From the NCBI GenBank assembly GCA_918797485.1, contig CAKKNE010000003.1, forward strand, positions 3,968,001 to 4,032,000: DNA of 64,000 nt, read 5' to 3'. The position numbers and the translations under genes were made by a program. The notes under the pieces were generated by a model. That model worked only from the letters and a program-made list of their open reading frames with translations, did no database searches and was not told where the DNA came from. This stretch comes from Pelagomonas calceolata (lineage: Eukaryota). Below, piece after piece: positions 5,595 through 60,545 of this stretch (its first letter is position 1; each line of letters starts with the position of its first letter).

Positions 5595-8500
5595 ATGGAG
5601 CGCGCCCGCCGCACGGGCACGAAGAAGCAGTCCCGCGAGGCCGTGCGAGCGGCACTGCGCGCGGCCAGAGAGGGCGGCGCCGCAAGATCCGACCAGTGGG
5701 AGGCGAAGGAGGAAAAAGATGTGTACGAACAAGTAACGGAGCAGGAGTACGCCGACCTCGTGCGGAAGCGCCGCCAGAACGAGGACTTCGTCGTCGACGA
5801 CGACGGCCTCGGCTATTTTGACGACGGCGAGGAGCACTTCGGCGAGGACGTCGCGGAAGGCCTCGAGGAGGCCGCTCCCAAACAAAGAGGTGTGGTCCAC
5901 GCGCGGTCGAAGGACGCCGTGCGGAAGGCTAGAAAGTTGAAAGAAGCGCGCGCGGAGGGCGAGGAGCGCCAGACGACGAAGATGACGCAGTTCCTCGGCG
6001 GTGATGGAGAGAAGAAGGCGCCGAAGAAGCCCGTCGCCGCCGTGAAGCAACTAGACGCCTTCGAGTCGTTAATTGATGGGTTGGGGAGCGGTGCCGTGAC
6101 TGAACGGAAGTCCGTGGACCTGGGCGGCGGCCTCGGCTTCGCGAACGAGGCGCCGAGCGGCCCCAAAGTAGCGCCGACACCTAGACGCATGACCTACGAC
6201 GAGGTCAGCCCGATGCCGTTGTGGTCGGCTGGTGTGGATCTGGAAGCATCAATTGGAGGTGGTGGTGATGACATGGGCATGGGATTTGGGATGGCCGACG
6301 ATGATGTACCGGCCGCGTTGCCGGCGGCCCTGCCTTCCACCAAGGACGCCCCTCTGCCGCTCAAGGCGACCGCGGCCCCCAAGAAGAAGAGCCGCTTCTC
6401 GAAGAACGACGTCGTGGTCGAGGCGTCGACGGCCGCTCAGACGGCCATGGCCATGGACGTCCGCGCCCGCGTCCCTTGAGTCACGCGTCGACGGCGCCGA
6501 GGGCTCGGCACGCCATCGCCGCGACGCTCACGGGTCTCAACAACACAGGTCGACAAGCCCGCCGCGACCGAGGCCGCTCCCCAATTACCGGAGCGCATGG
6601 ATGTGGATGAAAGCGCCCCTCAAGCGGACCCGAATTATGGTGGCGGGAGTACGGTCGACAAGCTCGAGGAGACGGAGTGGCTGCGGGATTCCGAGGGCAA
6701 GCACTGCTGGCTCTACTGGCTCGATTGTGTGGAACAGTCTGGCTCTGTATACTTGCTCGGGAAGATCCGACTCGAAGGGGAGCAAGATAGATATGCCTCA
6801 GCTTGCTGCGTCGTGCGGAACGTCGAGCGGAGCTTCTTCATCTTGCCTCGAGTCGATTCCGAGACCGGTAGCCGTTACGGCATGAAGGACGTCTGGGAGG
6901 AGGCGCGGTCGGAATTGGTCCCGCGGTGCGTCCCCAAGTCCGAGCCCTTCAAGTGCAAGGGCGTCAAGCGCGGCTACGCCTTCGGCGACGACGACGTGCC
7001 CCGCGACGCCGACACGGAGTACCTGAAGGTCAAATATTCGGCCAAGAATCGGGCGCCGCCGGTCTCGTTGTGTAAACGAGGCGGCCGGTGCATCGAGAAG
7101 ATCCTCGGGGCCGGTTCCACACCTCTAGAACAATTCTTGATCAAGCGCAAGCTCATGGGGCCCTGCTGGGTGCGCATCGACGCGCCGGTGCAGCGCGACT
7201 CGAAGGTCTCGTGGTGCGTTTTGGAGGTCGAAGTGTCCGACGCGAAGAAAATAACCGTCGCGCGGGACTGCCCTTACTCGGCGCCTCCTCTCGTTTGTAC
7301 GACGCTCAGTGTCAAGACTGCCGTGAACCCCAAGAGCCATCAGCACGAGATCGTCGCGGTGGCGGCGCTCACTCACAGAGGTGTTGCCGTCGACGGGGCC
7401 ACTCCCGATGGAGGAAGGGGGGAAGATGCCCGGTTGTTCCAGCATTCCACCGAGAAGCAGGAGGCCGGGAGTCGCAGATGGACCTGCGTCGCGGCGCGGC
7501 CGCTCGGTGCGGAGATCGCCGGCGCGCAAGATACACCGTTGGATCCGAAGCTGCCTAGAGATCTCCACGGCGAGCTGAAGAAACCTACGCATGGTTTTTT
7601 AGCTGATAGAGGGACCGTCACGGTCGCACCCAACGAACGGGCACTCATCTCCGTGTTATTGGCGCGCTTGCAACGGGACGACCCGGACGTGCTCTGCGGG
7701 CACAACATCCTCGGCTTCGAGCTCGACGTCCTGTTAGCGCGAGCCCTGGCCCTCAAGGTGGGCAACGCCTGGTCGAAAGTAGGGAGGCTCAAGCGCAACA
7801 AGCCGCCTCATCGGTGGAAGGCCGCGTCGGGCCGGGACACGTTCCACGCGTCGGCCACTTCGGGGAGACTGATCTGCGACACTTATTTAGCCGCCAGAGA
7901 ACACTTAAGAGGGGCCACGACCTACGCGTTGGCGGCATTGGCTCAGACGCAGCTCGGTGTGCGAGGCCGCCGATCGCTGGAGCCGCGGGAAGTAGCTCAA
8001 CTCCTAGGAAGCGGCTCCCAGAACGTCTGTGGACTCCTGAGGCACGCCGCCGAGGACTGCCGGTTAGTAGAACGACTCGCATTACGTTTGCAGGTGCTCC
8101 CGCTGTCCAAACAACTTACAGCGATCTCGGGAAACCTACTAGCGCACACGTTGAAGGGCAAGCGCGCGGAACGCATCGAGTACCTCTTGTTACATGAGTT
8201 CCACCGCATGAAGTACCTCGCGCCCGAGAAGCAGCGGTATGATGCTGATGATGACGACGACGTCCGTGACTCAGCGTCCTTACGCCATCGACGCGACTCG
8301 TGCGGGGTCTCATGATTCGTTCACCACAGGTCGACCACAACAAGAAGAAGCGCAAGAAGACGGACCCGCACAAGCGCCAGAAGGCCGCGTATTCCGGCGG
8401 ACTTGTGTTGGAACCCAAAAAAGGGTTCTACGACAGCCACGTGCTACTGTTGGACTTCGCGTCGCTCTACCCTTCCATTATTCAGGAGTACGACCTCTGC

Positions 8501-10390
8501 TTTACCACTGTTGATTGGGCCCCCGTCGCCAAGCGCATGGAGGCCCGCGCGAACGGCGAGAGCGACGCGAAGAAGGCGAGGACCGAGGACGACGAGGTCG
8601 TCGAGGAGGCCGCGGAGGAGCTGCCGCCCTTACCTGATAGAGGCGACGGGGCCAAGGGAGTCCTGCCGCGCGTGCTCAAGAACATCATCTCGAAGCGGCG
8701 CGAGGTCAAGGGCCTGCTCAAAAAGGAGAAGAACGTGAAAAAACGGGAGACGTACGAGATCCGCCAGATGGCGCTGAAACTGACGGCGAACTCCATGTAC
8801 GGCTGTCTGGGTTTTTCCCATTCTAGATTCTACGCCAAACCGCTGGCCGCGCTCGTGACGTCGTTAGGTAGAGATACTTTACAAGCTACTGCTGACGTCG
8901 CCGAGAAGGAGTTAGGCCTCGAAGTCATTTACGGCGACACGGACAGTATCATGATCAACACGAGGACCGACGACCTCGCCGTCGTCAAGGACCTCGGTCT
9001 CAAGGTGAAGAAGGCCGTCAACAAGCGCTACCGGTTACTAGAACTCGAGCTCGACGGCATCTTCAAGACGATGCTCCTCCTCAAGAAGAAGAAATATGCT
9101 GCATTAGTTGTCAATGAAGATCCCAGAACCGGGGCCGTCAGCCTACACAAAGAAACTAAAGGCCTCGACATGGTGCGCCGCGACTGGTGCCCGCTGTCGA
9201 AGCGGACCGGTGCTAGAGTACTGGATTTCTTGCTGAGCGGTGATCAAGCGGACGTGGTGGTCGCGAACGTCCACAAGGTCCTGGAGGACGTCGGCAAGGA
9301 GGCGCGGGAGGGCCGCGTGTCCGTGGCCGATTATGTAGTTACAAGAGGCCTCAACAAGCCGGTGGAAAAATATCCCGACTCCAAGGCCCAGCCGCATTTG
9401 AGGGTCGCCAAGGCCATGCTCAAGGAGGGCCGGGCGGTCAACGTCGGCGACCACATTCCGTACGTCATCTGTCTGGATGAAAACGGCAACTCGTCGAACA
9501 AGGGCGTCGCCGAGCGGACCGTGCATCCCGACCACGTCGACCCCGACACGACGGCCGTGGACAAGCGGCCCGGCATGGAGAAGGAAGGGGCTCCCGCGGT
9601 CGTCACGCCCGGCGGGCCTACACCGAAGCCCAAGGTCGACGTCGAGTGGTACCTCGCGCAGCAGATCCTGCCGCCCATCGCGCGGTTATGTGAGCCCATC
9701 GCTGGGATGAGCAAGGCGTCCATCGCCGACCGCCTCGGCCTCGACGCTCGCAAGTTCGAGCAGCACATGGCTCGAAGCCAGCAGGCGCTGGCGGAAGCCG
9801 AGGGCCGCACGGCGGCGTTCGTCCCGATGGCGGTCCAGTCAGATGAACAAAGATTTGGGGACTGCGCTCCGGTTCTGGTCGAGTGCGCGGCTTGCGGCGT
9901 GACGAAGCCGCTGACGCTGTGGCCGAAGCGTTCCGAAGATTGTGCTGATGAGGCGCCGCCTGCTCTGAAGTGCCCGTCGTGCCAAGCGCGACTATTGGGG
10001 CACAAGTCGGCCGCGTCGTGCTTCTCTCGTCTCAGTGTCGCGTTACAGTTAGCTACCCGCGGCGCTTTGAAGAGATACTACGAGGGCTGGATGGTCTGCG
10101 ACGACTCGGCTTGCGGCGCGCGGACGCGGCAGCTGTCCGGCGCGGGCCCGCGGTGCCTCCGTAGAGGTTGCCGCGGCCGCATGGTCGCCGAGGAGAGCGA
10201 GAAGCGCATCTACACGCAGCTCTGCTACCAGAAGGCTTTATTTGCTGCTGATAGAGTCGCGTGCGCCCAGAACTCGGACGAGGCCGAGGTCTGCGCGTTC
10301 CTGGAGCGCCAGGTCGCGCAGGACGTGGAAGCTTCCGCCTACAACTTCGTGCGGCCGAGCATCTTCGCGGTCTTCGGCAAGTACGAGTGA
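5595..10390 (+). CDS. POLA1: DNA polymerase alpha catalytic subunit; exons 5595-6458, 6549-8261, 8330-10390
   Basis: N-terminal [16 protein letters not shown]-family motifs [29 protein letters not shown]-terminal Zn fingers; two GT-AG introns restore one frame. Confidence 0.95.
6459..6548 (+). other. Spliceosomal intron 1 of POLA1 (90 nt, GT-AG)
   Basis: GAC|gtccgcgc...caacacag|GTC; removes an in-frame TGA and keeps frame. Confidence 0.85.
8262..8329 (+). other. Spliceosomal intron 2 of POLA1 (68 nt, GT-AG)
   Basis: GAC|gtccgtga...caccacag|GTC; resolves the frame change between ORFs 6597 and 8300. Confidence 0.9.
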
Positions 10391-11111: not shown

Positions 11112-11300
11112 GGCTGCTCAGGGCCGCAGGCTTTGTGGCCTCTCTGAGAAGTCCTCTCAGGACTCAGGAGAGCCAAATATCGGCCCAATCGCCTAATGGA
11201 TCGCGGCGCGTCGTCGACGCGTTGGCCGGGTCTTCGCGCTAGGCCCCAGGCGGCGACCACCCGCGCGAGCACCGCTACACAACTTGCCCTGGGCAAGCTA

Positions 11301-11324
11301 GCTAGCGGCTTGTAAGACACTAGC
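11301..11324. promoter_or_regulatory. Conserved upstream motif GCTAGCG-N4-TAAGACACTAGC
   Basis: gctagcggcttgtaagacactagc, ~190 bp upstream of the UBL gene; one of at least 12 copies. Confidence 0.6.
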
Positions 11325-13580: not shown

Positions 13581-14221
13581 GGTGACCTGCGTGTGCGGGC
13601 ACCGTCATGCGTTCACGACGCCATCGACGCGACGGCGTGCGGCGCCGGCTCGACGGCGAGGGCGCGGGCCACGGGTCGTGCGACTCCTACCCATCGACGC
13701 GACGGCTGCGCGCGGCAGACGAGCCCTAGGAGCCCCTCTGGTGCTGCAAGCAGCTCGCAGCGATGCCGGCGCAGCGCGACAGCTGGACTGGGCAGTCAGT
13801 GACTGTCGTTATCGCGATTGAACGAGACTGATGCATGCATAGACGCCGGGGCGCGACGCGGGAGGCGGGACAACAAAAGTGGCACTCTTCAGGATCGGCG
13901 CTCGGTTGCCGCGCCGCCGGACCGCGCGCGATGGCTATAAGCGACGCGGAGAGTCTCGGAGACGGCTCCGGCGGTAGGACTACGAAACGGTAGCGCCACT
14001 AGGCCGTACGGGTGCAACCGTTGGCAGCCGCTTGGCGCATGGGAAACGGCGCAAGTGCGACGCCAAGCGGACGACACCAGACAACCTCGCGACGCGCACG
14101 GTCGCGCGCGGCGCCGCAGCAGCAGCGACTAGCGGCTAGATAGCGGCTGCCCCGGCACCCAGCACAAGGGCTGCCCCACAGACCACCGGCTGCCCCAGCA
14201 CCCATCACAGCAGCGAACAAC

Positions 14222-17200: not shown

Positions 17201-18422
17201 CTGGCGGCCCACGACGCCGTCAAGCACGCGCACCACCAGATCAAGCTGACGGCCGCGCCGGCGTCGGGCGGCAACGCCTGGGCGTTATTACCGAGGGACG
17301 TGCGCCACGCGCTTCGGGATGCTGTCCAGCAGGGCGATGCCGTAAGAAGAGCCGTCACGGACCTGCAGGCGGTTCTTGTGAGGAGATTTTTAAGATTATG
17401 CTCCCAGAAAGACGGCCATGAGCCTGACTCGGCCCTGAAGGATGCTTTAAGGGTAGTGCGCGGGGCCGCTTCCAGGGAAGTTGTGAGACGAAAGGCGCTG
17501 TGCGCGGCGTTGCATGATGCCCAGTACAAGGCCGCAGAGGGGGTACTGAAAAGAATTCGGGACCGACCACCGTCGGCTTCTGTCGCTAGAGATCTCTTCC
17601 GGCTACGAAAGAACCGGTTCGACGCTTTGAGGTTGCGAACGCCGGCGGCCAAAGCAAGGTTCGCCGCAGCGACGGCGAAGTGGAGCTCGGCTGAGTTCCG
17701 CCGGTTGCTCAGACAACTCGCGCTGCAGTTCAACGGCGACCGCGCGCGGGCTTTCCCGGGGGGTGGTGCCTCGTCGCTAGAGCCGGGTGTGTTCTACGGT
17801 TTTGAGGATGCTGCCCAAGCTCACGCCCCGGCGCCGAGAGTGGAGTGTAGGTTCGACGACGACGGCGACGACGGCGGCCACGCGAACCGGGCCGCGCTCG
17901 TGTTCCAGAGCCCCAAGGATCTCGTGAACTGCTTCGAGGCGCTCGAGAACGACGGCCGATTGGACATCGTGGCGGTGTCGAACGGCTTCCTAAACTCGCT
18001 CAAAGATGTCGCCGACGAGAACACGAAGCCGACGCTAGCTCCTGTGTGGAAATCAACGAATGAGTTAGCCGGGGACAACGTCGCATCGATGGCGTGAGGC
18101 GCCTGAAATTTGATTTCCACACAGGTCAGCTCCCCATGAGGTCGCGCTCGCCGTCGACTTGTTGCGGCAAGGTATCCTCTGCGACGTTCGACTTAGACTC
18201 AGGGCGCTGGAGCGGCCCCAGCGCCACCTCGGCTCGCTGGCATTCTTAGCGGACGCGTCGACGCACGAGGAGATCCTCCTACCCATCTGGCCCGACGTGT
18301 GCCACTACGACGGCTGGTCCCCCAACATCAGCGCGCGGGACCGCGTGCCGACGGTGGCGAAGAGCGTGGACTTCGCGCCGCGCGACTACCGGAAACCTGC
18401 TAGGTGGGGGCAGACGAACTAA
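14222..18422 (+). CDS. Large Ala/Glu-rich coiled-coil protein with degenerate RelA/SpoT-like C-terminal domain; exons 14222-18033, 18125-18422
   Basis: 1291-aa ORF joined to ORF 18159 by a TIR-bounded intron (GC donor 18034 or GT donor 18046, both frame-compatible). Confidence 0.75.
18042..18124 (+). mobile_element. Introner (non-autonomous TIR DNA transposon), short 83-bp copy
   Basis: Perfect 15-bp TIR ctgtgtggaaatcaa / ttgatttccacacag; degenerate 8-bp TSD gctagctc / gtcagctc. Confidence 0.9.
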
Positions 18423-26299: not shown

Positions 26300-27765
26300 C
26301 TAGCCGAGCGCCGCGAGCAGCCGCGCCTTGAGGACCTTCTTCAGGCCCTCCGTCGACAGGCCCCGCGCCTCGAGCGCGAGCTTAAGGTCGTAGACCTTCA
26401 TCTTCTCGACCTCGGCCGCCGTCAGCGCGTCGGCCGCCGGCCGCGCCGCGTCGGGCTCGACGTCCATCGCCGCCGCCGGCGCGGGCGCGGGCTCGGGCTC
26501 CGGCGCGGCGGGCGCCGCGCCGTCATCGCCGTCATCGCCGCCGGCGAGCGCGCCGAGGAGCCGCTCCTTCAGGACCTTCTTGAGCCCGTCCGTGGGCAGG
26601 CCCCGCGCCTCGAGCGCCGCGCGGAGCTCCGTGACCTGGGTGGTTTACGAAAGATCTCCGCGCCTTCTTTCGAAAGCGTTTTCGAGCGCGTCCAGTTTGA
26701 AGGGGCGCGGTCGAGCGACGACAAGGGGCGCCGGACGCGCGCCTTCATCTTCCCGACGTCCTCGGCCGACGGCCCGTCGACCTCCATCGCGGCCGGCGCC
26801 GGCGCGGGCGCGCCGGCCTCGTCGCCGAGCTCCGAGAAGCCGCCCGTCGAGGCCCGCGGCGCGGGCGGCGCGGGCGCGGCCGCGGGCGGCGCGGGCGGCG
26901 GCGGCGGCGGCGCGGCCGGCGCGGCCGGCGGCGGCGGCGGCGGTGCCGCCGCGCGCGGTGGTGGTGGTGGCGGCATCGACGGGGGCGGCGGCGGCGGCAC
27001 CGAGGGCACCGACGGCGGCGCGCCGGGCGGCGGCCCCGGCGGCGGCCCCGGCGGCGCCAGGCCCGGGATGACGCCGGCCCTGAGCTGCCGCTCGAGCGCG
27101 TCGACTTCCGCTGGAGTGGTGGCATTGGCCACCGCGCGCCGGATCGCCGCTTTTTGTTCGGCCGTGAGGTTCGCGAGGGCCGCGGGCGGTGCGCCGGACC
27201 GCGGCGGCGGCGGCGGCGGGTGTGCCGCGTCCGCCGTCGCCGAGACTAATGTTAAGTCCGCATTTGAAGGACCGTCTTCCGGGAACAGTTCTGAGGCCTT
27301 CTCCCGTTCTGCCGCTTTGATCTTCTTGAAGTCCAGGGTTTTCAGGGAGGGCACCGTCGCGATGAGGAACGAGCGGTAGTGCTCGAGGCGTTTTATCGGG
27401 TTGCCCACGCAAGCCAAATGCTGGAGCTTCGCGCACGACCTCAACCCCGCCAGCTGCGTGAGACTTTCGAGGCGGTTGTGGCACAACATGAGCGTTTCTA
27501 GCGAAGGTAATTGGTCGCCCAAGTTATCGTCAATTGTCGCGACGCGATTATTATGCAGTAACAGAGTAGTCAGCCGTCGGGCCGGCGCGAAGTTGCCCAC
27601 CCTCGTGATTTCGTTGTCGCTCAAATCTATAACATCGAACTGGTCCTTCAGCGTGCCGGTGTTCTCGATCGCGGCAATTTTGTAGCCCCTTAGGATCACT
27701 TCCCGCTCCCCGAGGGGGTTCATCCTTTGCGCCGCGTGGACGGCGAGGTCGGCGGTGAAGCGCAT
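26300..27765 (-). CDS. SNRPA1: U2 snRNP A' (LRR) with Pro-rich linker and two C-terminal SAP domains; exons 27765-26743, 26635-26300
   Basis: [47 protein letters not shown] intron 26636-26742 yields [28 protein letters not shown] and a second SAP-like repeat. Confidence 0.88.
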
Positions 27766-27973
27766 GGTCCTAGGGTGGCGGCGGCGGCGTGCGCGGCTGC
27801 GTCGCGGGCGGCCGCGCGGCGGCGGGCGCGGGCCTCAGCGAGGCGGCCTCGGATGCCAGCGGGGCGTGCGGCGGCGGCGGCTCCGACTGCGCGTGGCGGG
27901 AGCTCCCAGCAGGCACACAAAACACTACAGCTCGTCCTCTGCGGGACGCGTGTGGCGCGGGCGAGTCGCTGCG

Positions 27974-30054: not shown

Positions 30055-33000
30055 ATGGGCCTCACCTGCGCCAAGGCCGACGTGAAGACGCAAGCACCCC
30101 TTGAGGAGACCGAGGACGCCCAGGATCGTAGTGATGAGCTCCTCGAGCGGTGGCGGTCCGGCGAGCTCGCGCACCTGCAGCGCGTGTACCGGCGCCACGC
30201 GCGGCCGCCACAAACCCTGGACAGGGATGGACTGGTAGCAGCTTTAGAGTTGGAGGACCACGCCCACACGGATACTCTGTATGAGTTGTTCGGGACCGGT
30301 TCCTGTCGCGACTTCTGTCGAACGCTGAGCTGGTGGTGTAGGGGCGACGCCTCAGAAAGGAGGAGCTTCTTGTTTTGCTGGTTCGCCATCTCATCCACAG
30401 CCGACAAGGACGCGTTGGTCGGAGGCGACGCGTCATCCGCAGAGCTCCCGAAGAACATGTTGGGTGCCCTCTGTGCTTTGCTCGAAACGCCGCCGCCCTA
30501 CCACCTCTGCGCCAAAGGTACAGTAAGTTGGCGCAAGTTCGACGGTTGGGCGCGGACGTTGTCTGACGAGCAGGTCTGGGCCGCGCTACCTTTATCCATA
30601 GTGTCCCAACCGGAGACGGAGCGGGCGCTGGTCCTCGAGCATTGGCACGAGGGTAGTCCAGGAGATGTCTACCACGTGATTCCCAGGAGGTGGTGGGACT
30701 CCTGGTGTGCTTATGTGGGCTGGTCGAATTTAACACCACCCGCACCCGGCGCACGTTTGACCGTGAAGCCCGCCGGCGCATCGTCTGGTGTAAGGCCGCG
30801 CGACGTCGACGCGTCTTCATTAGAATCCGATCGAGACGGCGCACTCAGAGCCAAGATAGATATAGCTTGCGTTCCCGTTGATGTGTGGCGGCTCTTCGAG
30901 CAGTGGTACGGCGGCGGGCCGCTCTTCCCGCGACGGTTGCAAGAGGACGGGGCGTTGGATCTGTACCCCGTCTCCGTTTTTATCGACGAGTGCGATGCGA
31001 ACGGCCGGCCGCGGAACGCCTTTACGGCTAGACGAGCGGATCGGAAGGAGACGGTACAAACTTTTGCGAGGCGCCTCTCTGATGGTAATTCGCGCCTCTA
31101 CGCGACGTCGCCGACGGGCTGGCGCCGCTTGACACCTTCATCGAGATGTGACGAGGTGCTCGAGGCTGGTAGCACGTATCTGCTCGAGACGAAGATTGAG
31201 GGAGTCTGGCCCCGCGCGTCGTCACGATACGTTGTGGGTGACAGAGTATCAGCAAGGGACCACACGGAGCGGTGGCGCAGCGGTAAAGTCATAGCGGTGT
31301 CCGAGACGCGGGGCGTCAAAGTGCGTTTCGACAGTTTTAGTAGCAAGTGGGACGAGTGGCTCACAAGCGATCGGTTGCGACGAGAGGATGTGGATATTGA
31401 CGACGTGTCGTTATCGGAGGACGAAGAAGAGAGGCCCTCTTTACTTAAGGGTGCCGTGTCTTCGCTCAGACGAGTGCTCGGCTCCAATGAGGAGGAAGAG
31501 GAGGAAACGAGACGGCTGCCGGCCACCGGTCTCGCGAACCTGGGAAATACGTGTTTCCTGAACGCGGCGGTGCAGTGCCTGTCGCACGCTCCTATCTTGC
31601 GGGCGTATTGTCTTTCTGAGATGTATGCACAAGACATCAATCGGACGTCGCGACTGGGCTCGCAGGGCCGCGTCGTCGAGGCGTTCGCCGACTTACTGAG
31701 GCAGCTCCACGCTTCACAAATTTGCGTCCGCCCCGAAGGCTTCAAGAAGGTGCTCGGAAAATGTAAGCCCCAATTTGCGGGCTCGGAGCAGCAGGACTCC
31801 CAGGAATTTCTCACCGTGCGGGCGCGGCGTCCGTCTTCGTGATCACATGAGAGTCTACGCGCCTCGCGGTCGCGTCGATGGCGTCGATGCGGACGCGATG
31901 CCTCGACGCCGTCGACGCCGTCTTCATGATCATCAGAGAGTCGATGTGTCTCGTGGATGTCCAGAGGCAGCGTCGCGATTGTATATGTTCCACGCAGGAG
32001 CTGTTAGATGTCTTACATGAGGACGTCAACCTCATCCAGGAGAAGCCCTACGTGCCGGAGCCCGAGGATGCGGACGAGGCCCGCGACGGCTTGGTGGTCG
32101 CGGCGCGCGACGCGTTACGTCGCAGTCGCTTGCGAGACAAGTCGTTAATCAGCGACCTCTTCCAGGGCCAGCTCGTCGCCAAGAAGACGTGCAAGGTCTG
32201 CGCGCGGTCGTCCGTCAAATTCGAACCGTTTACGTCTTTGTCCTTGCCGGTACTGACTCGGCGTCTGTTTCTGTGGTTTTCTGAACTTCAAGTTCGCGTC
32301 GATGGCGTCGGCGCGACGTCACGCCGCCGCGGCGCCGTCGACGGGGCCGTGCGAGCGTCTCGTGAAGAGCCACGGCAGTTTCGTGAGTGTCGTTCGACGC
32401 AGGTCCCGGCGCCCGCTTCTCGCTCCTTCGTCGTCGCTGTCCTGCGCCTCGCGAAGCACGCCAACGGCCACCCCTCGCTTACCGTCAGGGTCGAGGCGCC
32501 TCGGTTAGGGGATGTGCGGGACCTGAAGAGTGCGATCGCGGCCGAAGTCAAGCTCACTCCGGACAGTTTGACGCTGTGCGACGTGGCCAGACACCGGATC
32601 TACCGCGTCCTGGACGAGGACACGCTACCCTTGGGAGCGTTGGGCGACTTTCCGCAAGTGACGGACGCGTCGAAACGCCTACTGATTGCGTACGAGCGGC
32701 CTCAGCTCGAACTCGCGAAAACACCAAGCATAGACTTTCCCTCGTCGTTTGAAGAACTAGCCGTCGGGCAGCGCCTCGACGCTTTAGATCATAAGCGCCA
32801 GTGGTACGTCGGGACCGTGGTTGATGATACCGAGCCGTGCCGAGACAAGAATTTCGGGAAACCAGGCTACATACGTATTAGATTTGACCGCTTCTCGGCG
32901 AAGTGGGACGAGTGCTTCTGTCGTGATGACTGGCCGGCCAAACTCCAGCCGCCGTACAGCAAGTCCAAGGGCAACCGGCTGGCGGCCTTCGAGATAGGTG

Positions 33001-34133
33001 TCGTCCACCGGCGACGCGCGGCGTTTTGAGGCGTTGCGGCGCCTTCACGTTGTTGCTGGGACTCGTATCATGTTGTGGGTCGTTTCTTTGTCGAATTTGA
33101 GTGAATTCGGACCGCGTCGGGGCCGTCGCGGCGCGTCGGAGAGACCGCATTCATGAAGATGGCGTCTTCACGAGACCGCGGCGCCTCCACGCCGTCGTCG
33201 TGATCCCACGAGGGTCTCCGTGGTCCTCAGGACGCCGTCGACGCGCTGCCACGTCGGACCGCGTCGAGCGACCGCGATGCTCCGCGCAGGTCGCCGAAGA
33301 AAGGCTTATTTGGGACGCCGTTTCTCGCACGCGTCGCCTCTGATAGGTCGTGTCGCGCGCTGAAGCGGGCCGTGCTGCGACAGGCCTCTCTCTATGGTTA
33401 TGAGGGCTCCGTCTCCGTGATATCGCGGGACTCGTTGTCAGACGTTGATATTGACCTCGACGCGTCCGATTCGTGCCGCTGCCTCGCAGATAGATTTTAC
33501 ATAGCGTTGAATTGGGACTCGTCTTCTACCTACCGGGAGCCCCTCTCTTTGCAGAAATTGCCACCGGTACCGACAAGTCCGAGGCACTACGACCTCGCGT
33601 CCTGTCTACAATCATTTTCAAGAGAAGAAACGCTGTCTCAAAATGATTCGTGGCGCTGCCCGCGATGCAAGAAGTCTGTGGAGGCTACTTCCTCAATAGG
33701 TTTGTGGCGCACGCCTGATGTATTAGTTATTCATTTGAAGCGGTTCCTGTGCACCGCGCGCTGGCGAGAAAAGTTGCGGACGGACGTCTCGTTTCCGAGA
33801 CGAGGCTTGGACCTCTCCAAGTTCTTACCGGCGGATGCCTACGCGGTCTACGACCTGTTTGGCGTCATCAACCATCTCGGGTCACTGAGTGGTGGGCACT
33901 ATACCGCTCATGTCAAGGTGTCGCCCTGTTCGTCGTTCGGGGAGGAGGAGGCGTCTATTGCGTTTGAGGAGAGTGAGAGGTGGTTCCATGTCGATGATGA
34001 TTTGGTCGAAGCGGCCAAACCAGAGGACGTCGTCACGGACGGGGCCTACGTCCTGTTTTATAGAAGAAGGCGGCTTTCCGGAAGGTTGGTGGTCGGCCAC
34101 ACGGCGGTCGGGCCGGTGGCGGCGGGGGTGTAA
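30055..34133 (+). CDS. Ubiquitin-specific protease (DUSP, UBL, Tudor/MBT-like inserts, C19 catalytic domain); exons 30055-31815, 31998-32249, 32403-~33010, 33290-34133
   Basis: Cys box GLANLGNTCFLNAAVQCL, QQDSQEFLT|ELLDVLHED, His box NHLGSLSGGHYTA, AYVLFY; three introns restore the frame (third donor is 33011 GC or 33023 GT). Confidence 0.9.
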
Positions 34134-36998: not shown

Positions 36999-37753
36999 AT
37001 GCTCCGCACTGCACTACGACGCGCGCGACCCGCGAGCAGCGTTGCGCCGCGCCGCGGCATCGCCTCAGGTCAAAATTTGCTGCAGCTGTCGACCTCGGAC
37101 CTCCAGCCGGCCCGCACCTGGGACGCCGCCGAGGCCGACGGTGTGTGCGCGGCGTCCGGAAATGCGCCGTCGCCGCCGTCGCAGCTTTTTTCAGTCGAGT
37201 TACGACGGAGTCCCGCCGGACGCGCGCGCCGAGAGCACGGAGCGCGTGGAGCGCCGTCGTCGACGCGGCCGACACACACGCCGCGCTTAGGCTTCGCCGA
37301 CGCGGCCGACACGCGCCGCGCGCAGGCTTCGCCGGCACGTCCCTCCAGCAACTGTTCCAAGGGCGGAAAGTGGTGCTGTTCGCGCTGCCCGGCGCCTTTA
37401 CCGGAGTGTGCGAGAAGGGGCACGTGCCCTCGTTCGCGAAACTCGTCAATGAATTTCAACAGAAGGGCGTCGATGAAGTAGTATGTCTCGCTATAAACGA
37501 CCCCTACTGCATGAACGGCTGGGCCAAAGCGATGCAGACGAAGGGCATCTCCTTCTACGCCGACGCCGACGAGTCCTTCACGCGGGCTGTTTCCGAGACG
37601 CGCGACTGCACTGCTGATGCCCTCGGGCCGGGGGTCCGGTCGAACCGCTACGCCTGCGTCGTGGAGGACGGCGTCGTGGGCGCGTGCTTCGTGGAAGCGG
37701 GGCCGGGGGACTTGACCGTGAGTGATGGCGCGACGCTGCTGAAGGCGCTCTAA
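36999..37753 (+). CDS. Type II peroxiredoxin (PRX5-like), probably mitochondrial; exons 36999-37140, 37326-37753
   Basis: KVVLFALPGAFTGVC..GHVP, CLAINDPY, RSNRYA; Arg-rich presequence; GT-AG intron 37141-37325. Confidence 0.9.
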
Positions 37754-42226: not shown

Positions 42227-42610
42227 AGCGTCGTTGTATGACCCGTGTAAAGTCCTTGATTGTATGACTCTCTGTGCGAACAGAGAATGAGAGAGAGAGA
42301 GTCGCTTATTGAACCCACCCCCAGGTAGTACGGACCCCGAGCGCTTCGAATGAGCTAGCGGCCTGTAAGACACACTAGCCAGCAATTTGTGCTCTGCGCA
42401 AAGTCGGCACGCGCGCCCCGCGCCCCGACGCCGTCGTCTTGGCGCTTGCCGAGTAGCGTTACCGAGCCTGCCCGGCGCTCCCTCCGACCAACGCATCGAT
42501 TGGAGGCTGCCCACACTTTGTCCCACCGGCACGCCACCGCCGCGCCGCGGGCAGCGCGTCGCCTCGTAGAGCTACCAAGCGTCACAGCGGGCTGCCCCGC
42601 CACCACCGAG

Positions 42611-44800
42611 ATGGCCATCGTCGAGTACGACACGGGCTCGAAGGGCTTTGATGGGTTCCTCACCTTCGTGTCCATCCTCATCTTGGTCCTGTTATCAGGC
42701 CTGTTCAGTGGCCTCACATTGGGACTGCTCGGCTTGGACCTCAGTGAGCTCGAAATTGTGAAGGGGGGAGGGTCGGCGACGGAGCGGCGGCGCGCGGCGA
42801 AGGTCATGGGCATCCGCAAGGACGGCAATAGGTTGTTGTGTACGTTATTGCTGGGCAATGTGGCGGTCAACGCTCTCTTGTCCATTTTTCTGTCTGGTGT
42901 CACCTCTGGTTTAATAGGGTTCTGCGTGTCGACGGCGCTCATCGTGGTTTTTGGCGAAATCCTCCCGCAAGCGATCTGCTCGCGCCATGCGCTGAAGATC
43001 GGGGAACTGGCGCTACCGATCGTGAACGTGATCATGGTCGTGCTGGCGCCGGTCTCCGTGCCCCTGAAGACGGTGCTCGACAAGTTGTTAGGTGATAGCG
43101 TCGGTACCATACATACGAAGACGGAGATGATCCAGTACGTGAAGCTGCAGCACGAGCGCGGTCCGCGACGCGGCGTCGTGCATCGGTCGACGCTTCACGA
43201 GACCTCTCGTTCCGCGCGCAGGCGACCTCAACGAAGATGAGAGGACCATCATGCAAGGGGCCATGGATATGAAGGTGAAGACGGCGCGGGAGGTCATGAC
43301 GCCGCTCGAGGACGCGTATATGCTGGAGGAGTCGTGCAAATTATCGTTCGCCGTCGTCCGGGACATCTTCGACCACGGGTTTTCCCGAGTGCCGGTCTAC
43401 GCAAGGGAACGACAACATGTCGTCGGGTTATTATTTGTAAAAGATTTGATCTTCGTGGACCCGGAGGACGAGGTACCTCTGGCAGAGTACCTGCGGGTCT
43501 TCGAGCGGTCGATTGAGCTCGTCGACGCCGAGTCCAATTTGGATGACGTCCTGCGCATCTTCAAGCGCGGCCGCGGCCACCTCGCGCTCGTGCTGGGGCA
43601 GCCGCGGAAATCATCGATGGTCGAGGCCGACTGCCTGTCGCCCCTGCACGGCAGCGACAAGTCGTTCATCGTCGGGCTCGTTACGTTGGAAGCTGTGTGG
43701 AAATCAACCAGTGCGTCGGGTGCACAAGTCATTTCTCGGCGATGACGCGGCCGTGCTGGCTCCGTCAAGCAATGAGGAACCGGCATCGCCACGCCATCGA
43801 GCAGGCGTCGCGTCGATGGCGTGGAGGACGACGCGATGATTCAGCACGAACGCGCCGTGAACTTTTGATTTCCACACAGGTTGGAAGACATTATTGAGGA
43901 GATCTTAGGCGACGAGATCATCGACGAGACGGACGTGTACGTGGACGTCGACAACCATGTGAAAGTGGACGGCAGGAGCAAATTCGGTCGGCGGGCGGCG
44001 TCCTCCTGCGGGTGATTCAACGTGCGAGCGTCGCGGCGGCGGCGTGGGGGGTCGGACGCTGTCTCGGGGGAGCTCGCACGCTATCGACGCGACCCGTCGC
44101 GCATCTACGCCTCCCTAGAGTACGCCATCGACGCGACGCGTCCCGCGCAGATTTCACTAAATTGCGACGCCTGGACAGCGCCGTCGTCGACGCTACTCTG
44201 ACAGAGGCGGAGGTGAAGGCAATAGCTCAGCACCTCGGCGGCGAGCTCAAACAACCCGCCGACGCGTTAATGGCGCTGGTCCGGAGAGCGTCGGTCGTCG
44301 ATCACGAGCGCAGGACGCCCGAGGCCGAGCTCGACGCCGGCCGACCGCCGGAGCCCTCCGACGTCGTCTACGAGCGGGGCTTTCCCGCGAACTTCGCTAC
44401 TCTTGTACTATCGGGAAAGCTGTCAGTGAAAGCCGGCGTGGACGGGTTCCGCGCCGAGGCGGGGCCCTGGACCTTGTTAGGTGCGGGCGCGTTACGACAT
44501 GAAGACTTCGTGCCCGACTTTTCCGCTCACGTGGCCACGGACAGCGTCAGATGTGTCTACCTCTCGCACGCCGAGAAGTCGAACGCGCCGCGTCGTGCCC
44601 GCAAGGATGATATGAGGCGGTCGCCGTCGCGCGAACGGCGGCGCTTACGTAGAGACCGGCGCGTCGGCGACCGGCGGGGCGCGCGGTCGGCGCTCGGGCT
44701 GGGCCGCGAACTGGGGCGCCCGGCGGGGCGGCGGGACCCGTCGTCGCGGTCCCTGAGTTTTGATTCGCCGGTGCGCGGGACACCTCCTCCCGTAACGTGA
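42611..44800 (+). CDS. CNNM/DUF21-CBS metal transporter with C-terminal CNBH-like domain; exons 42611-43160, 43222-43684, 43880-43986, 44151-44800
   Basis: LSGLFSGLTLGLLGLD, LLCTLLLGNVAVN, FGEILPQA, GFSRVPVY; splicing gives GLVTLEDIIEEILGDEIIDETD. Confidence 0.93.
43693..43879 (+). mobile_element. Introner (non-autonomous TIR DNA transposon), 187 bp, forming CNNM intron 43685-43879
   Basis: Perfect 15-bp TIR ctgtgtggaaatcaa / ttgatttccacacag flanked by perfect 8-bp TSD gttggaag (43685-43692, 43880-43887). Confidence 0.95.
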
Positions 44801-44818
44801 ACACTAATAAATAATTAC

Positions 44819-45487: not shown

Positions 45488-45838
45488 CGTGGTCGGCGCC
45501 ACGGCTGCCTCGAGTTGGCTCCACTGCAAGAATTGATCGTCTGTGTGTCGGAACGCGTCGAAACCGTACGAATGAGTGCGATTAGCGCCGATAATAGGCC
45601 AATAGCCACAGCTTGCGCAATTGCTAGTGTCTTACATGACGCTAGCTGGCGCCGACGGTCGCAGTGGGTTTGGCGTGTTTTTTGGACCCGCTGACGGCTG
45701 TTGCACGCAGAGACGCTGCGCACGTCTTCTCTGAGCAGTCCTGTGGCCGCGCGCCAGTCGCCGCGCACCAGTAAGCTCGCCGCAGCCGACGCCAGCCGAC
45801 GCGACGCGCAGCACGCCCGCCGACGCGCAAGCGCAGCC

Positions 45839-47068: not shown

Positions 47069-47310
47069 CATGGCGAGCACGGTCCCGCCCTGCGGCCGGG
47101 GTTCGGTCCAGCCGCTCTGGGACAGCACTAGAGGTAAATACGTCGAGGTCGAATGCCCGCACGCGTACCGCGTCGAACGTTCGTGTAATGCACCACACGC
47201 CATCGACGACGCGATTCCACACAGGCAACACCATCACCCGAGCGCGCTACGGAACCGCGTCCCGATCCTGAGGGCGCTCATGGAGTATCTCCCGGGCGGC
47301 GAGAGCTTCT
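47069..47310 (+). pseudogene. Truncated 5' fragment of a second DUF938 paralog
   Basis: HHPSALRNRVPILRALMEYLPG matches HHASALRNRVPILKALLKLLP of 45839; intron-like 47159-47224; similarity stops before the SAM-binding motif. Confidence 0.7.
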
Positions 47311-51403: not shown

Positions 51404-54400
51404 TTACTTGCCCTTCGACCCCCACTTCTTTCTCATCTCCCGCCGCCGCCTGACGGCCTCGGCGCGCTGCTGCTGGGCCAGCCAGGACCCCGCGGCGGGT
51501 TTTTCATTGCGCGCGGCGCGCTGCTCCGCGGCCCGTTTCCGCGCCCGGTCCAGCGCCGTCTCGCGCGGCTTCGACTGCGTCCCGCGCACGTGCACGACCC
51601 TAGGTCTCAACTGCAAGCGCGACGACGACGACGTCGTCGTCCGCGACGACCGCACCATCGGTCTGGGTGAAACGAGGTTGCCGCCGCAGTTGTCGCCGCG
51701 CCCTTCCGACATCGCACTGACATCTTCCAAATCACAGAAGAAGGACGTACCACTACGCGACGACTGATCCGCGCAGACGCGGGGCTCGCGGTAGCCCATC
51801 GTGGCCAACAGTAGCTTCGCCTGCTCGCTGCCCGAGATCTGGCGCCATAACCCGCAGGCCAGGCCCGGCGTGTAGTTGCCCATGAGCTCCGTCGCCGATC
51901 TTTTTTTGATTCTCTTGACGGACGGGTCATCAGACAACTGCTTGGCGCAGTCGATTCTGTTACTATCGACGTTGTCGATCTCGAGGAAGCGGAGCATGGC
52001 CCTTAATGTAGGTTCCGTGCTCCTCACGAGGTCCTCATATCTCAAAACGCGCACGGCCCGTCCGGACGACGCGAGGTCGGCGTGCATCATCGCGTAGCCT
52101 GTGTGAGAGTAGAGTCGACGGTGGACAAGGAAAGGACGCCGCCAAAAGCACGCATCCACTTGCAGCCCATGCACCGCGCGAACATGGCGAACCTAGGGGA
52201 GGTCACGTCGCGCTCGCCCGCGGCGTTCGCGTGGCCTCCCGCTATGCGCCGGTTGTACTCGCTCCAGATCGCGTCGAACGGATGTCGTACCAGCAATATG
52301 ATGCGTTCGGCCGTGGTCTGCGGCATGTACTTCGCCGGGTTCAGGTGCGCCTTCACCACTAACACAGCACCGCTATCCACGCCTTCCGCCGGCAACAACC
52401 TCATGAGGTCAACGTCATCGTAAACCGATCCCGTGTAGTAGCCCGACGCGTGCTCTAACAGTAACCGCGTCCAGGTGTTGCCCGAGCCCGGGAAGGACGC
52501 TAGGACGGCCGGTTTCGAGCTTTCGGGGCGGAATGTCCGCGTCTGGTAGGCGCCGCAGGTTTTTAGCGTTGCAGCTCGCTCGGGGCAGCACTCTTCCAAT
52601 TTCGGCGTCTGCAGCTCGGACCACCACAGCTTCACGATTGTCGAAGACACCGTAGGTAATAAGCAGTCGACGGAGAAGCTACAGGCCATGAGCTTGGGCT
52701 GCACGGCTGCCACTTGACTTTCTGAGGCGGTTTCCGTAAACCTTTCCACTAATAGCGAAGCCACGGCGGTCTTCCGCGTCGCATCGACGATACCAGCTGT
52801 CAAGGACCGTCGTCGTTGGTCCCTTCTTGCCAGCGCTTCGGCTTCGGTCACGCGAGGTGCCCTAAATGTGCGTAAAGGCGGCGTGCCACAGAGAGGCCCC
52901 AGCGCCGCGTACTGCGGCGCGCCGACGCTCCAAGTTAATTGAGCGCCGCCTTGTAAACCCATGGTGCCGAAAACTAAGGAGCGCAACGGTCCCGGCTTGG
53001 AGATTTGTACTGAGGCCGGTATCGTCGGTTCCGCTGCATGAGGCGCCGGCGTTATTGCCTTCCACGTGAACAAGGACGAGCCCCAGGCCGTCTTCTTCTT
53101 CTTCTTTTTGATGAGCGGGGCGTCGTCGTCGGACGCTCGACCACCGGCCATCCGTGGAGCGGGCGTCGTCATTTGTTCGAGCTTCGCCGCCGTCTCGGCC
53201 CCCAGCAGCTTCTCGCGCATCTTCTGGAGGCGCTTGAGGCGATCATCGGAGGCGCCGCGCAGCCTCGGTGGGTCATCGGCGCCGCGCAGCCTCGGTGGCG
53301 GTGCGTCGTCCTGGGCGCCGCGCAGCCTCGGCGGCGTCGCCTCGTAGGCCCAGTCTCCTCCCTTGTTAGGTTCGTCGTCGCCCTCCGTGTCCAGATTCAC
53401 GCCGTCGTCGCCCTGATCGTCGTCGGACTCGTCGCCAGACACGTCCGCCTCGACGCCAGCATCTAACCAATCACCTTCCGGCACCTTGCCCTGGTCGAGC
53501 CACGCCTCGGCCTCCTTCTCAGGGGTGTCATCATCATCATTTTCTGGTGCTAGTTTCGGTTCTCTCGGCGCATCATCATCATGCTGCGCTATTGGCGCAT
53601 CGTCGTCGTCCTGCGTCTTTACGAGCTCGAAGAAGCCCGCTGCTTTCAAGCGCCGGCCGGTCCAGAGGCGCGGGAGCCAGCGGCGGCGGCGGCGGCGGCG
53701 CTCCAGAGGCGGCCTTTCTGACACCGGTTCGTCGACCTGTTCCTGGAAGAAGCTACGAGGCGGCCGCGTCGGCCGCGGCGACGGTCGCCGGGAAGGCCTT
53801 GGGGTGGGCATGAACGTCGGCCGCGGCGTCGCGGGGTACCATTTTCTGGAACCAACGTCCAACGCCGCGACGTGCCTCTGGCAGAAGTGCATCTGCTTCG
53901 GTCTAAAAGCTCGTGATTTGGTCTGGTCGTACAGCATCTGGATGTGTTCTGACGTTGTTTGGGGAGATGCTAATCTAGTTTGATCATCTAGGGTAGTAAC
54001 AGATAGCAGTGGCAATAAAGCGGCCACATCTAACGCTCTTCGACCATTATCGCTCAGCTTGGCCAGCAACTCCGCGACGTCCCGCGTGAGGAGCAGGAAC
54101 CCCTCGGCCAACTGTAAGGGCGGCAGTATATCAGAGGGCGCCACACATTGAAATTTCGTCCAAGCGAACTGAAATAAGGGCCGCTTTTTTATTTCTTCTC
54201 TAATACGATGGACGCAGAGCAGCGACCGGTCGTTCGTCGCCAAGACATGTGATAGTTGTTTTTTTTCTTGTAGAACGCGGCTTATTATTTTTAATTCTGC
54301 ACTAAGCTCGTCGCCTTGACTCAGGACCTCGACGCCCACATCTTTATGACGGTCGTATTCCCGTACCAGATCTTGCTGTAATCCGGTTCTATTCGTCGAT

Positions 54401-57163: not shown

Positions 57164-59311
57164 CTACGACCAGATGCGGAACGTGCAGTCCGTCGACGTC
57201 GACACCAGTAACGTATCGGCGGGGTCGAAGCAGACCCCCTGGACGGCATCTTCATGTCCTCTACCACTCCATAGCACGCTCGACAGGTCGTCCGTCGAGT
57301 AGCCGTGCACGAGACCATCATCCCCAGCACACACGATCCTCGTCCCAGATCGGTCGAAGCAGACCTTGTTGACTGGGTGTGTCGACACGTGGATCGTGCC
57401 GATCTCCGTGACCGTGCGCACGTCCCAGAGCTTGACCACGCCGTCCGCGTCGCAACTGGCAACCACGTCGCCGCGCGCGTTGCAGGCGACGCCGTTGCAC
57501 GCGTTCGTGTGTCCATAAAAAGTCTGCACGCATAATGCCGACCGGGCGTCCCAGATCGACACGGTCTTGTCGCCGGAGGCCGTGCAGATGTTGTTCGAGA
57601 AGGGCTGCCAGGCGCAGGCGTTCACGCTGTCGACGTGGCCCCGCAGCGTCTGCCGACATCTCAGGGAGGACAGGTCCCACAATCTAGTCGTATGGTCCAT
57701 CGAGCACGACGCCAAAAAGTCACCGGTATGGTGGAACGCGCAGTCCCAGACCGCTTGCGTGTGGTCCGAGAAGGTGTGGGCGCAGGCGGCACCTGCGGGG
57801 ACGCGAACGCGTGACCGTCGCGGTCGCGGCGACGGGTTCAGTACACTGAGTCAGCACCGGCAAAATCCCAAATTTTGACCGTTCTATCTCCAGAAGCCGT
57901 CGCAAGATGACTGCCAGCAGGATGGAAATCAACCCCAGAAATCCAATCTCTATGACCTTCGCCGGACATGACCAGGTCGCAGTTCGGGACGGACCAGAGC
58001 TTCCAGGTGGCATCATCAGAAACAGTGGCCTGCGTGAGACCGACGTCGTCGCGACACCGCCTCCGTTCACTCACGCGACGCGTAGGCTCTCATGCGGCCG
58101 CGTCGACGGCGTCGAGGCGCCACGGCATCGCGACGACGCCATCGACGCGAATCAGAAAAGTTGGGAAACGAAAGGTCGGAAACGGACGCCGCGTCCGCAC
58201 CAGGATCGGTTTATGAGGGTGAAAAGCTGCAGCAGATACGGCGTTGACGTGGCCCTTGAAGGTCCTTCTCAACTGATACCGCTCGATGCCCGGCGGGTCG
58301 AAGGTTAAGGACGCGTAGGGGTTCGGCACCGAATCCCGAGGTGGCAGCTTCGAATCCGCGCCGCGCTTCGGCCGCGGCGGCTTCGGCGTGGCTGGGGCCT
58401 TCGTGGCCGCGGCCTTCTCGGCCTGGAGCTGCTGCACTTGCGCTTCTAGTGTGTGTACTCTAGCCTTGATCCGATCCCGCTCGAGCCGCGTGAGCATCTT
58501 CTCCTTCATGGCCACCTCGTACTTCTTCTGGAGGTCCTTGAGGGTCGGCTCGTACGACAGGTAGTGCTTCCGCAACCGCTGGAGGTCCGTCGTAAGCTTC
58601 GCTTTTTCCTGAACGACCTGCGGCGGTTTCGCGTGATGTGGGCGTCTGTTTGCGTCGCGAGGCGTCTCTATGTGATCGTCTCCACGAGAGAAGATGCATG
58701 GTGGTCTTCTTTCCGATTTTGGGCGGGATTTGAGCGATTCGAGGACGCCGCGATCGCACGCGCCGGTGGTGCATGCGATGGAAGTCGCGCTCCTTGCGGA
58801 ACTTGTCCCAGGTGCCCTGGGCTTTTTCGGTTATGATGCGCATCTTGTCGAGCTGCTGTTGTAAGGCTACTACTCTCTCATCGAGGTCCTGGTTCCGGAC
58901 ATATATGTCGGGAACCGTGTCCGTGTACACTTCGGCCAGCTTCCCCTTCTGCTGGAGGTCGTACCACTCGCTGTTGAAGTTATCTAGGGTCCTCGACATG
59001 CCCACCTTGATCAGGAAGTTGCGTATAAAATCGTCGACCACTTCAGGTCTGACTTGAGTTAACGTCGGTTTGGCCGCCGGTGTTCCTATGTCCCTTTGGG
59101 AGGCTACCGTGCTTCCGGCTCTTGATTTTTCGTCTAATCTTTGTACACTGGCAAGAGCGGCAGCGAAGTCTTCATCATCGTCGTCGTCGTCGTCCTCGTC
59201 GTCCGGCGCTTCGACGGCATCATAATCAAATTCGTCGGCCTCATCATCACTTATCTCATACTGTTCCACGACCTCGACCTCGTTCTGGGCGTCGAGGGCG
59301 GCCTCGTCCAT
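57164..59311 (-). CDS. SPAG16: Flagellar central-pair WD40 protein PF20/SPAG16; exons 59311-58760, 58617-58201, 58029-57858, 57792-57164
   Basis: RPEVVDDFIRNFL, KERDFHRMHHRR|VVQEK, HYLSYEPTL, WD40 repeats; three GT-AG introns restore the frame. Confidence 0.88.
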
Positions 59312-59761: not shown

Positions 59762-60545
59762 ATGCGTTGCTCGTTCATCGCATTAGCTGCGCTTATTACG
59801 AGCGTAAACGGCCTATCCGCGACGCGCCGCCGCCTGCCCGTATCGCGCGAAGAGCCCGCGACGCGCGCTATCAAGAAGAACCTCGCCCGCGCCTTCGCGG
59901 TTCCACTCGTCGCCGGCGCTGCGTCTCGTGTAGAGCCAGTCCGCAAGCTCATGGCAGGATTCGACCGCATCCGCGTCGGCCTCGTCGCCGGCACCGTCGG
60001 CGCGGCCATTCTAGGAGGCTGCTACTTCATCTTCTCGTTCTGCGTCATGGACGCCTTGAATCAGCAAGACCCACAGACGGCCATCAATACGATGAACAGC
60101 ATCAACGTCGTCATCGTGAACCCCAAGTTCATCGCAGCATTTATGGGCACGCCGCTCATATGCTGCTGGCTGGTCGCCGAGGCCCTGGCGGTGGGAGTAG
60201 GCTCGTCGACGGACGTCGCGCTCATGCTCGGCCCGGCGTCCTTGCCGGGATCGCGCCGACGGCGTCGCCCTCACGCCGTCGACGCGACGCAGGTTCGGCG
60301 GCGCGCTCACGCTCATCGTCGGCGAGTTCCTCGAGACGATCATATGTCACATCCCGAAGAACGACGCCCTCGCGGCGCACAAAAAGGGCGGAAACGACGC
60401 CGAGGTCTGGGCGCGCTACTACACGTCCTGGACGGCCTGGAACCACGTGCGGATGGTCGCGTCCCTCGCGACGGTGGTCCAATTCTCGCTCGCGCTCTTC
60501 TACCGCGGGGCACGCCTCGGAGGCGGCTATGGCGGCCTGCCGTAA
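59762..60545 (+). CDS. DUF1772/anthrone oxygenase-like membrane protein with presequence; exons 59762-~60225, 60293-60545
   Basis: GCYFIFSFCVMDAL..MNSINV; after the intron HIPKNDALA..WARY..WTAWNHVR; donor is GC 60226 or GT 60238. Confidence 0.85.

Follow-up and report, generated by a model that had tools for sequence, protein, structure and literature searches.

How are introns recognized whose 5′ splice sites lack the canonical GTRAG donor consensus? This question is raised by a stretch of 64,000 nucleotides (nt) from the pelagophyte Pelagomonas calceolata (GenBank assembly GCA_918797485.1, contig CAKKNE010000003.1, positions 3,968,001 to 4,032,000 of the forward strand), referred to here as the window, in which the 8-mer CGGCGTCC or a close variant follows most donors at a distance of about 10 nt. 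A first-pass annotation of this DNA had offered two explanations for the motif, i.e. either the eroded left terminal inverted repeat (TIR) of older introners (intron-generating transposable elements) or a lineage-specific splicing signal that defines weak GT or GC donors through a protein or through extended pairing with a small nuclear RNA (snRNA). As described below, these options are not alternatives, as both are supported together: with a probability of roughly one half, the motif would be a remodelled left TIR that has been kept by selection as an auxiliary 5′ splice-site signal and is probably read by a protein.

The motif at the donors of the window

The photolyase encoded in the window has its nearest named relative in Aureococcus anophagefferens (68%), and GC content and intron features are similar to those reported for P. 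calceolata (bioRxiv 10.1101/2021.10.25.465678). The window (57–71% GC per 2-kb step) contains 16 coding introns, namely 14 "old" ones without an intact TIR and two young introners, all of which restore open reading frames (Table 1; single introns are named by their donor position). Two further candidates (approximately 13.58–13.74 kb, minus strand, and 47.16–47.23 kb, plus strand) were excluded, as their donors are not fixed. RNA evidence stems from poly(A) reads of one sample in four runs (X21–X24) over window positions 26001–46000, and splice joints are those among the RNA joints listed, outside of which there are 68 weaker joints. The joints of seven window introns are found in all four runs and indicate precise removal with GY...AG ends.

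In the old window introns, the motif starts at +9, +10 or +11 in three, eight and three cases, respectively, with a total of 10 mismatches to CGGCGTCC in 112 bases. At most one mismatch at these positions is seen for 12 of the 14, compared to 0.91% of 22,020 GT/GC sites (binomial p ~3e-23, for a motif defined on these same introns), and the 8-mer itself occurs 25 times in the window versus 10 expected. Each donor competes with 7–14 rival GT/GC sites within 30 nt; nevertheless, the used one is the single best motif-bearing site in 11 of the 14 introns. A core C-G-G (motif positions 1, 3 and 5) is common to all 16 window introns, and the core including T6 is present at +9 to +11 in 15 of them (background 1.7%). 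All 13 combinations of donor and motif listed by the first-pass annotation were recovered at their positions, six of them backed by RNA joints and seven by restored frames. Its generalization to nearly every donor is overstated, as the young introners splice without the full motif; its list lacks three of the 16 window introns, i.e. the two young ones without motif and the 57857 intron with three mismatches.

For pooled analyses, the 14 old window introns were combined with 18 introns from metagenome loci that had been picked for at most two motif mismatches, two of them after re-picking of the donor. These loci are 121 stretches (357 kb) from a scan for the right end of the young introners, an end present in about 2000 stretches of the metagenome contig collection; 11 of the 121, with low GC (cut-off 52% GC), and a duplicate (L045) were removed before counting. 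In the resulting 32 old introns, the motif starts at +9, +10 and +11 in 6, 20 and 6 cases. The absence of GTRAG donors noted in the annotation was confirmed for all 32 old introns as well as for 72 young introner copies. The old donors are not featureless, with C at +4 in 25/32 and G at +5 in 21/32, while AG at the exon end (4/32) and a CTRAY branch motif (1/32) are rare. The acceptor side deviates just as much as the donor side: all 16 window introns have C at −5, and in the 32 old introns most acceptors read C(A/G)CAG, with G as the next exon base in 30. In addition, there is a subclass with GACT or ACT directly 5′ of the motif, such as TGACTCAGCGTCC, in the introns 8262, 32250 and 57857(−) and at the loci L033 and L121, which points to an extended form of the signal or to a distinct old family.

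Probable origin of the motif from introner ends

Introners, which Huff et al. reportedly described for Aureococcus anophagefferens in 2016, are represented here by the 72 young copies, each selected for at most two mismatches in the TIR. In these copies, an 8-bp duplication starting with GT or GC is followed at +9 by the TIR CTGTGTGGAAATC, which is 13 bp long and conserved to 92–100% per position; the donor is provided by the duplication and the acceptor by the right end of the element. The duplication is at least 7/8 intact in 56 of the 72 copies. While the motif differs from the TIR at four of eight positions, the four positions that are common to both, C1, G3, G5 and T6, are the four best kept in the old introns (31, 32, 32 and 30 of 32, respectively). 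Moreover, left ends form a graded series from CTGTGTGG via CAGTGCAT or CGGTGCAT, CCGCGTGG, CCGCGTCG and CAGTGTCC to CGGCGTCC, with some of the donors re-picked. For instance, the intron of L057 shares 82% identity over 94 nt with a young copy, yet starts with CCGCGTCG at +10, and CGGTGC starts are found together with 8/8 and 7/8 duplications at L044 and L070. The suspected TIR origin is thus supported both by the young copies with their TIR at +9 and by these intermediates. The further claim that right ends are near-complements of the motif holds at the class level only and fails at positions 2 (0/32), 7 (8/32) and 8 (4/32).

Beyond the ends, 21 of the 32 old introns match another old intron and 13 a young copy, always in short patches except for the 94 nt of L057. 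The body motif CGCCATCGACGCG, in this orientation or reverse-complemented, recurs in many old introns, in a young 203-bp element and in intergenic DNA (approximate sites 8283, 31871, 32295, 44123 and 58149(−); intergenic 11335, 39249 and 46725) and may be a binding site for a transposase or a host factor. A model with a 9- or 10-bp duplication was rejected, as there is no excess of matches at +9 and +10 (8 and 9 of 32 versus 8.6 and 10.0 expected) and no such family.

Conservation of the motif

Following a suggestion of the annotation, the motif was compared with the rest of the intron, here the next 8 bases. The motif proved to be better conserved, with a sharp drop after position 8: in the 32 old introns, identity to the consensus amounts to 232/256 within the motif versus 94/256 behind it, and for the window introns, which were not chosen by motif, to 102/112 versus 53/112. 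The former duplication, by comparison, is at chance level at +3 to +8 (60 of 192 matches versus 53 expected, p 0.14). None of the 32 old introns has retained at least 7/8 of it, as opposed to 56 of 72 young copies, and five have kept 6/8. The donor has changed as well. CG at +4/+5 is found in 18 of 32 old introns (8 of 14 in the window) versus 5 of 72 young copies and 3 of 32 at matching exon positions, i.e. old donors are shifted towards GYNCG.

A duplication-flanked family starting with the motif was not found in about 360 kb (20 matches, compared to 17, 17 and 3 matches of control words, whereas the young TIR gave 138), nor was a metagenome locus orthologous to any of the 32 old introns. 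Complementarity between the motif and the right end of the same intron is 147/256 versus 148 with permuted ends, and hence there is no covariation. An eroded relic alone, the first of the two original options, therefore does not suffice, given that conservation stops at the last base of the motif, duplications are at chance and ends do not covary. The second option, a splicing signal, draws its support from the conservation pattern, which points to a probable role of the motif in splicing.

Occurrence outside the window

An intron caller was trained blind to the donor motif, with the first 25 bases of each intron masked. Its output is noisy, as a leave-one-out test on the window yielded exact positions for 7 of 16 introns together with 9 extra calls. 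The 181 calls in the loci were reduced by 77 young and 25 short-exon calls to 79 that are flanked by exons of 45 nt or more on either side. Among these, the exact motif is located at +9, +10 and +11 in two, four and one cases, compared to a single occurrence over the other 30 offsets. At in-frame alternative donors the motif was found for 11 of the 79 calls, and in the two out-of-frame sets for none (0/79 and 0/79). A tally of GT/GC upstream of every motif match in the loci, made independently of intron calls, gave no clear peak (GT at offsets 8, 9 and 10 in 10, 8 and 5 of 97, range 1–13), and motif matches near the body motif in the loci were too few for a tally (7 exact). The motif is real, position-fixed and reproducible outside the window.

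By GC content at third codon positions (GC3), the loci fall into two groups of approximately 0.73–0.88, which includes the window (0.78), and 0.96–0.99. A protein of the high-GC3 group is pelagophyte-like (65% to Chrysophaeum, other clusters at most 73%), and at L027 (GC3 near 0.97) the exact motif lies in an intron that interrupts a Cupin_8 domain. From composition, rather than from a tree, we infer that the high-GC3 loci belong to a second pelagophyte species. Four of them (L009, L043, L058 and L121) contain a 203-bp element with the same TIR and a different interior, which suggests that transposon ends are shared or transferred between pelagophytes.

Proposed scenario and alternative explanations

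In the proposed scenario, an introner inserts as seen in the young copies, where the 8-bp duplication beginning with GT or GC gives the donor and the right end the CAG. The left TIR CTGTGTGG thereby lands at +9, already equipped with the core C1, G3, G5 and T6. Subsequently, body, TIR tail and duplication would decay; if the graded set of left ends reflects an order in time, the left end would pass through CAGTG/CGGTG, CCGCGTCG and CAGTGTCC to CGGCGTCC, with a spacing of mostly +10 and a donor tending to GYNCG. Finally, a factor bound at +9 to +18 may help to fix the donor among the many GT/GC sites, which would be useful because these introns lack GTRAG, the exon-side AG and CTRAY. The element would then be an enhancer rather than a requirement, as young copies with the core alone splice well. 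Conceivably, the signal may even be older than the transposons, which succeeded because their end fits. More far-reaching, and to be put forward only tentatively, is the idea that pelagophytes have domesticated a DNA-transposon end as a core splice signal: with GTRAG, exonic AG and branch consensus mostly lost, the spliceosome would fix the donor by reading CGGCGTCC about 10 nt inside the intron via a dedicated protein or a rewired snRNA, with the TIR giving new introners one half of the signal and selection completing it.

A protein is the default candidate for the reader by exclusion, given the negative results for U6. With the same origin and selection, the motif might instead pair with a variant U6 upstream of the ACAGA box or with a 5′-extended or shifted U1, which we regard as unlikely. 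Such pairing would fit the overlap of the motif with the stretch of the human extended U6 helix that is contacted by SNU23 (+9, +10) and PRP38 (+13) (PMC10943123; this and the other publications cited below were available in part, and statements on them refer to these parts). It would also fit the substitutions C-to-T, tolerable to a G partner, in 8 of 128 bases at positions 1, 4, 7 and 8, and the lack of changes at G3 and G5 (0/64). However, 13 of the 24 substitutions are not wobble-compatible with the partner GGACGCUG, and no U6 with a wobble-tolerant complement of the motif within 10 nt upstream of its conserved core was found in the metagenome contigs. In viral contigs, a looser pattern of the U6 complement had no match, and neither the introner end nor U6 was found there. 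These searches depend on an exact match to the core, which agrees with Rfam U6 in the retrieved loci, and on assembled snRNA genes. The segment upstream of the core is identical in 13 of 15 eukaryotic U6 loci from other contigs (in prokaryote assemblies; the loci show no pelagophyte marks), which serve as a reference for conserved U6 only; 37% of 630 permutations pair with this segment at least as well as the motif does. Hence, the extended snRNA pairing considered by the annotation received, for U6, no support from complements or from conserved U6, the organism's own U6 being outside the data. A scan with Rfam of the window and 16 long loci found no snRNA. According to its supplement, the P. 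calceolata annotation of PMC9481584 includes U1C, U1-70K, LUC7, SNRNP27, SNU23, RBM22 and a METTL16-family gene. Eukaryotic snRNA clusters (U1, U2, U4, U5, U6, SRP, 5S and tRNA) were also observed on prokaryote-assembly contigs (L125, L130, L131, L135 and L136), where they are likely contamination.

Other explanations dispense with a reader of this kind. The motif could be a neutral relic of an ancient introner family with asymmetric ends and CGGCGTCC on the left, now unmaintained. The position would be correct, the left–right asymmetry at position 2 is already present in copies with intact duplication, old introns have body patches in common with each other and with young copies, and young copies splice without the motif. 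Such a relic is nonetheless improbable in view of the sharp fall of conservation past position 8, duplications at chance, a spacing that varies from +9 to +11, a donor that has shifted as well, and the lack of any duplication-flanked copy with a motif end in about 360 kb. Pairing of the motif with the 3′ end of its own intron, as a residual TIR stem that bridges the splice sites in the manner of euglenid non-conventional introns, appears the least probable. Positions 1, 3 and 5 are complementary to −1, −3 and −5 in 31, 32 and 32 of 32 introns, in line with the general C at −5, but such invariant pairs are uninformative either way; apart from the missing covariation, four of four introns with A at −4 keep C4, and the predicted pairing of the motif to the last 12 nt (0.055) is below that of shuffled controls (0.10). 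Alternatively, the motif may be kept at the DNA level, for example as a binding site or through chromatin or transcription, or result from GC-biased drift combined with selection against a TIR hairpin that hides the 3′ AG. T2, which is opposite the acceptor A, was indeed lost early and to all three other bases, and many old introns have retained the palindromic body motif, in one orientation or the other, so DNA constraints may act. Yet neither process would lead one to expect a particular 8-mer that is confined to one strand, keeps its distance to the donor constant to within 1 nt and shows in-frame specificity, and both seem rather improbable.

Several observations weigh against a selected, protein-read signal. 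The 43685 introner without full motif is supported by 36–69 junction reads per run, similar to the 7–61 and 22–53 of its motif-bearing neighbours in the same gene. At the called donor, at most one mismatch was seen in only 11 of 42 strict motif-blind calls, and the pooled conservation is inflated because 18 of the 32 old introns were chosen by motif. The duplication is an imperfect clock, since matches are down to 5/8 or fewer in 10 of the 72 young copies despite intact TIRs. Left-end changes in copies with intact duplication are not all directed towards the motif, T6-to-C and G7-to-A being common. Finally, the choice of protein over RNA rests on the negative U6 results, and no candidate protein emerged.

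Introns and neighbouring features of the window

Table 1. Coding introns of the window with their donor motif or TIR (start relative to the first intron base; window positions in brackets).
Positions	Strand	Type	Motif or TIR	Support
6459..6548	+	old GT-AG	CCGCGTCC at +9 (6467-6474)	frame restored
8262..8329	+	old GT-AG, DNA polymerase alpha gene too	CAGCGTCC at +11 (8272-8279)	frame restored
18034..18124	+	young introner, GC donor, 6/8 target duplication	TIR CTGTGTGGAAATC at +9, no motif	frame restored, sequence
26636..26742	-	old GC-AG	CGGCGCCC at +10 (26726-26733)	frame restored; not among RNA joints listed
31816..31997	+	old GT-AG	exact motif at +10 (31825-31832)	RNA joints in 4/4 runs
32250..32402	+	old GT-AG	CGGCGTCT at +10 (32259-32266)	RNA joints
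33011..33289	+	old GC-AG	CGGCGTTT at +9 (33019-33026)	RNA joints, frame
37141..37325	+	old GT-AG	exact motif at +10 (37150-37157)	RNA joints, 68-144 reads per run
43161..43221	+	old GT-AG, CNNM gene (Pfam CNNM)	CGGCGTCG at +11 (43171-43178)	RNA joints
43685..43879	+	young introner, spliced	left TIR at +9, no motif	RNA joints, 36-69 reads per run
43987..44150	+	old GT-AG	exact motif at +10 (43996-44003)	RNA joints
52099..52151	-	old GT-AG, 53 nt	exact motif at +11 (52134-52141)	frame restored
57793..57857	-	intermediate GT-AG, 6/8 duplication remnant	CAGTGTAC at +10 (57841-57848)	frame restored
58030..58200	-	old GT-AG	exact motif at +10 (58184-58191)	frame restored
58618..58759	-	old GT-AG	exact motif at +10 (58743-58750)	frame restored
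60226..60292	+	old GC-AG, 6/8 duplication remnant	exact motif at +9 (60234-60241)	frame restored

The host gene of the 6459 intron encodes the catalytic subunit of DNA polymerase alpha (Pfam DNA_pol_B, zf-DNA_Pol). The junction of the 26742 intron agrees with the second repeat of the encoded protein; its host (26300-27765, minus strand) is a spliceosomal-type LRR_9 gene with a proline-rich stretch and two C-terminal repeats, which we take to be U2A′-like with SAP-like repeats. The hosts of the 31816, 37141 and 57857 introns presumably resemble a ubiquitin-specific protease, a peroxiredoxin and, for the last, a WD40 gene, SPAG16. The cut of the 33011 intron may slide by 2, and GC-AG fits. The 43685 introner has a perfect 8-bp target duplication (43685-43692 = 43880-43887) and 13-bp TIRs, and its RNA joint accordingly comprises 8 ambiguous letters.

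As for the two excluded candidates, 13582-13745 (minus strand) is a probable intron of a 5′ untranslated region; it contains body motifs and has its acceptor near 13586, but no donor with a good motif is present. The segment 47100-47310 (plus strand) resembles the start of the 45839 gene, of which it is possibly a partial duplicate, and may harbor an intron at about 47159-47226 that is absent from the 45839 gene. Apart from introns, an intergenic motif of approximately GCTAGCG-N-GTAAGACACTAGC recurs upstream of many genes, often between divergent ones (11297-11324, 12267, 27974-28015, 29884, 35897(−), 39075(−), 40526, 42354, 45632(−), 46790(−), 49875, 55013(−) and 60660), and resembles a core promoter element or a factor-binding site.

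Significance and comparison with known systems

If functional, the motif would be a 5′ splice-site element that is sharply positioned and lies beyond the usual −3 to +6. It could explain why Aureococcus was scored as rich in "non-canonical" donors (PMC11347168) and would make gene finding more accurate in an abundant marine group, for which a share of about 14% GC donors is predicted (bioRxiv 10.1101/2024.10.30.620910). How a transposon insertion becomes an ordinary, well-spliced intron is an open question, for which the stages found here side by side offer a testable case.

Intronic enhancers close to the donor, bound by TIA1/Nam8 or consisting of G-triplets, are loosely defined tracts rich in U or G whose distance from the donor varies. 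They share with the motif a location just downstream of a weak donor, whereas the motif is sharply defined, GC-rich and 8 nt long, and keeps to within 1 nt of +10, at the position of a transposon end. In the human B complex, an extended helix of U6 and the 5′ splice site, SNU23 and PRP38 span +9 to +13 (PMC10943123), i.e. the same intron positions; there, contacts are made mainly by charged side chains, and the available text describes no fixed motif. The donor AG|GTGCGT of Micromonas (PMC3879977) resembles the present ones in C at +4 and G at +5 and likewise belongs to a picoalga of high GC content that has introners and numerous GC donors. Micromonas, however, keeps the exonic AG and an NCTGAC branch motif, both of which are rare here, and the available part of that report mentions no downstream motif.

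With regard to introners, those of pelagophytes, including putative introner elements of P. calceolata (bioRxiv 10.1101/2021.10.25.465678), are elements of about 200 nt with GT/GC donors, AG acceptors and TIRs, as observed here. The young copies also fully fit the legend of Fig. 2B in PMC9860276 on Symbiodinium, where the donor derives from the duplication and the 3′ site lies in the element. While pelagophyte introners have been described in the available sources via the TIRs of repeats, a fixed 8-mer in old, mostly unique introns outlasts the TIR here. The motif string was not found in the literature searched, although the logo in Supplementary Note 3/Fig. S3 of PMC9481584 may show it, possibly as "TIR". 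Unlike euglenid non-conventional introns (PMC11282704), the introns of the window have canonical GY-AG ends and no supported end-to-end pairing; with these, as well as with the introns of Amoebophrya and Fritillaria (PMC11282704), they have in common that splicing appears to be accommodated to TIR-bearing, transposon-derived introns.

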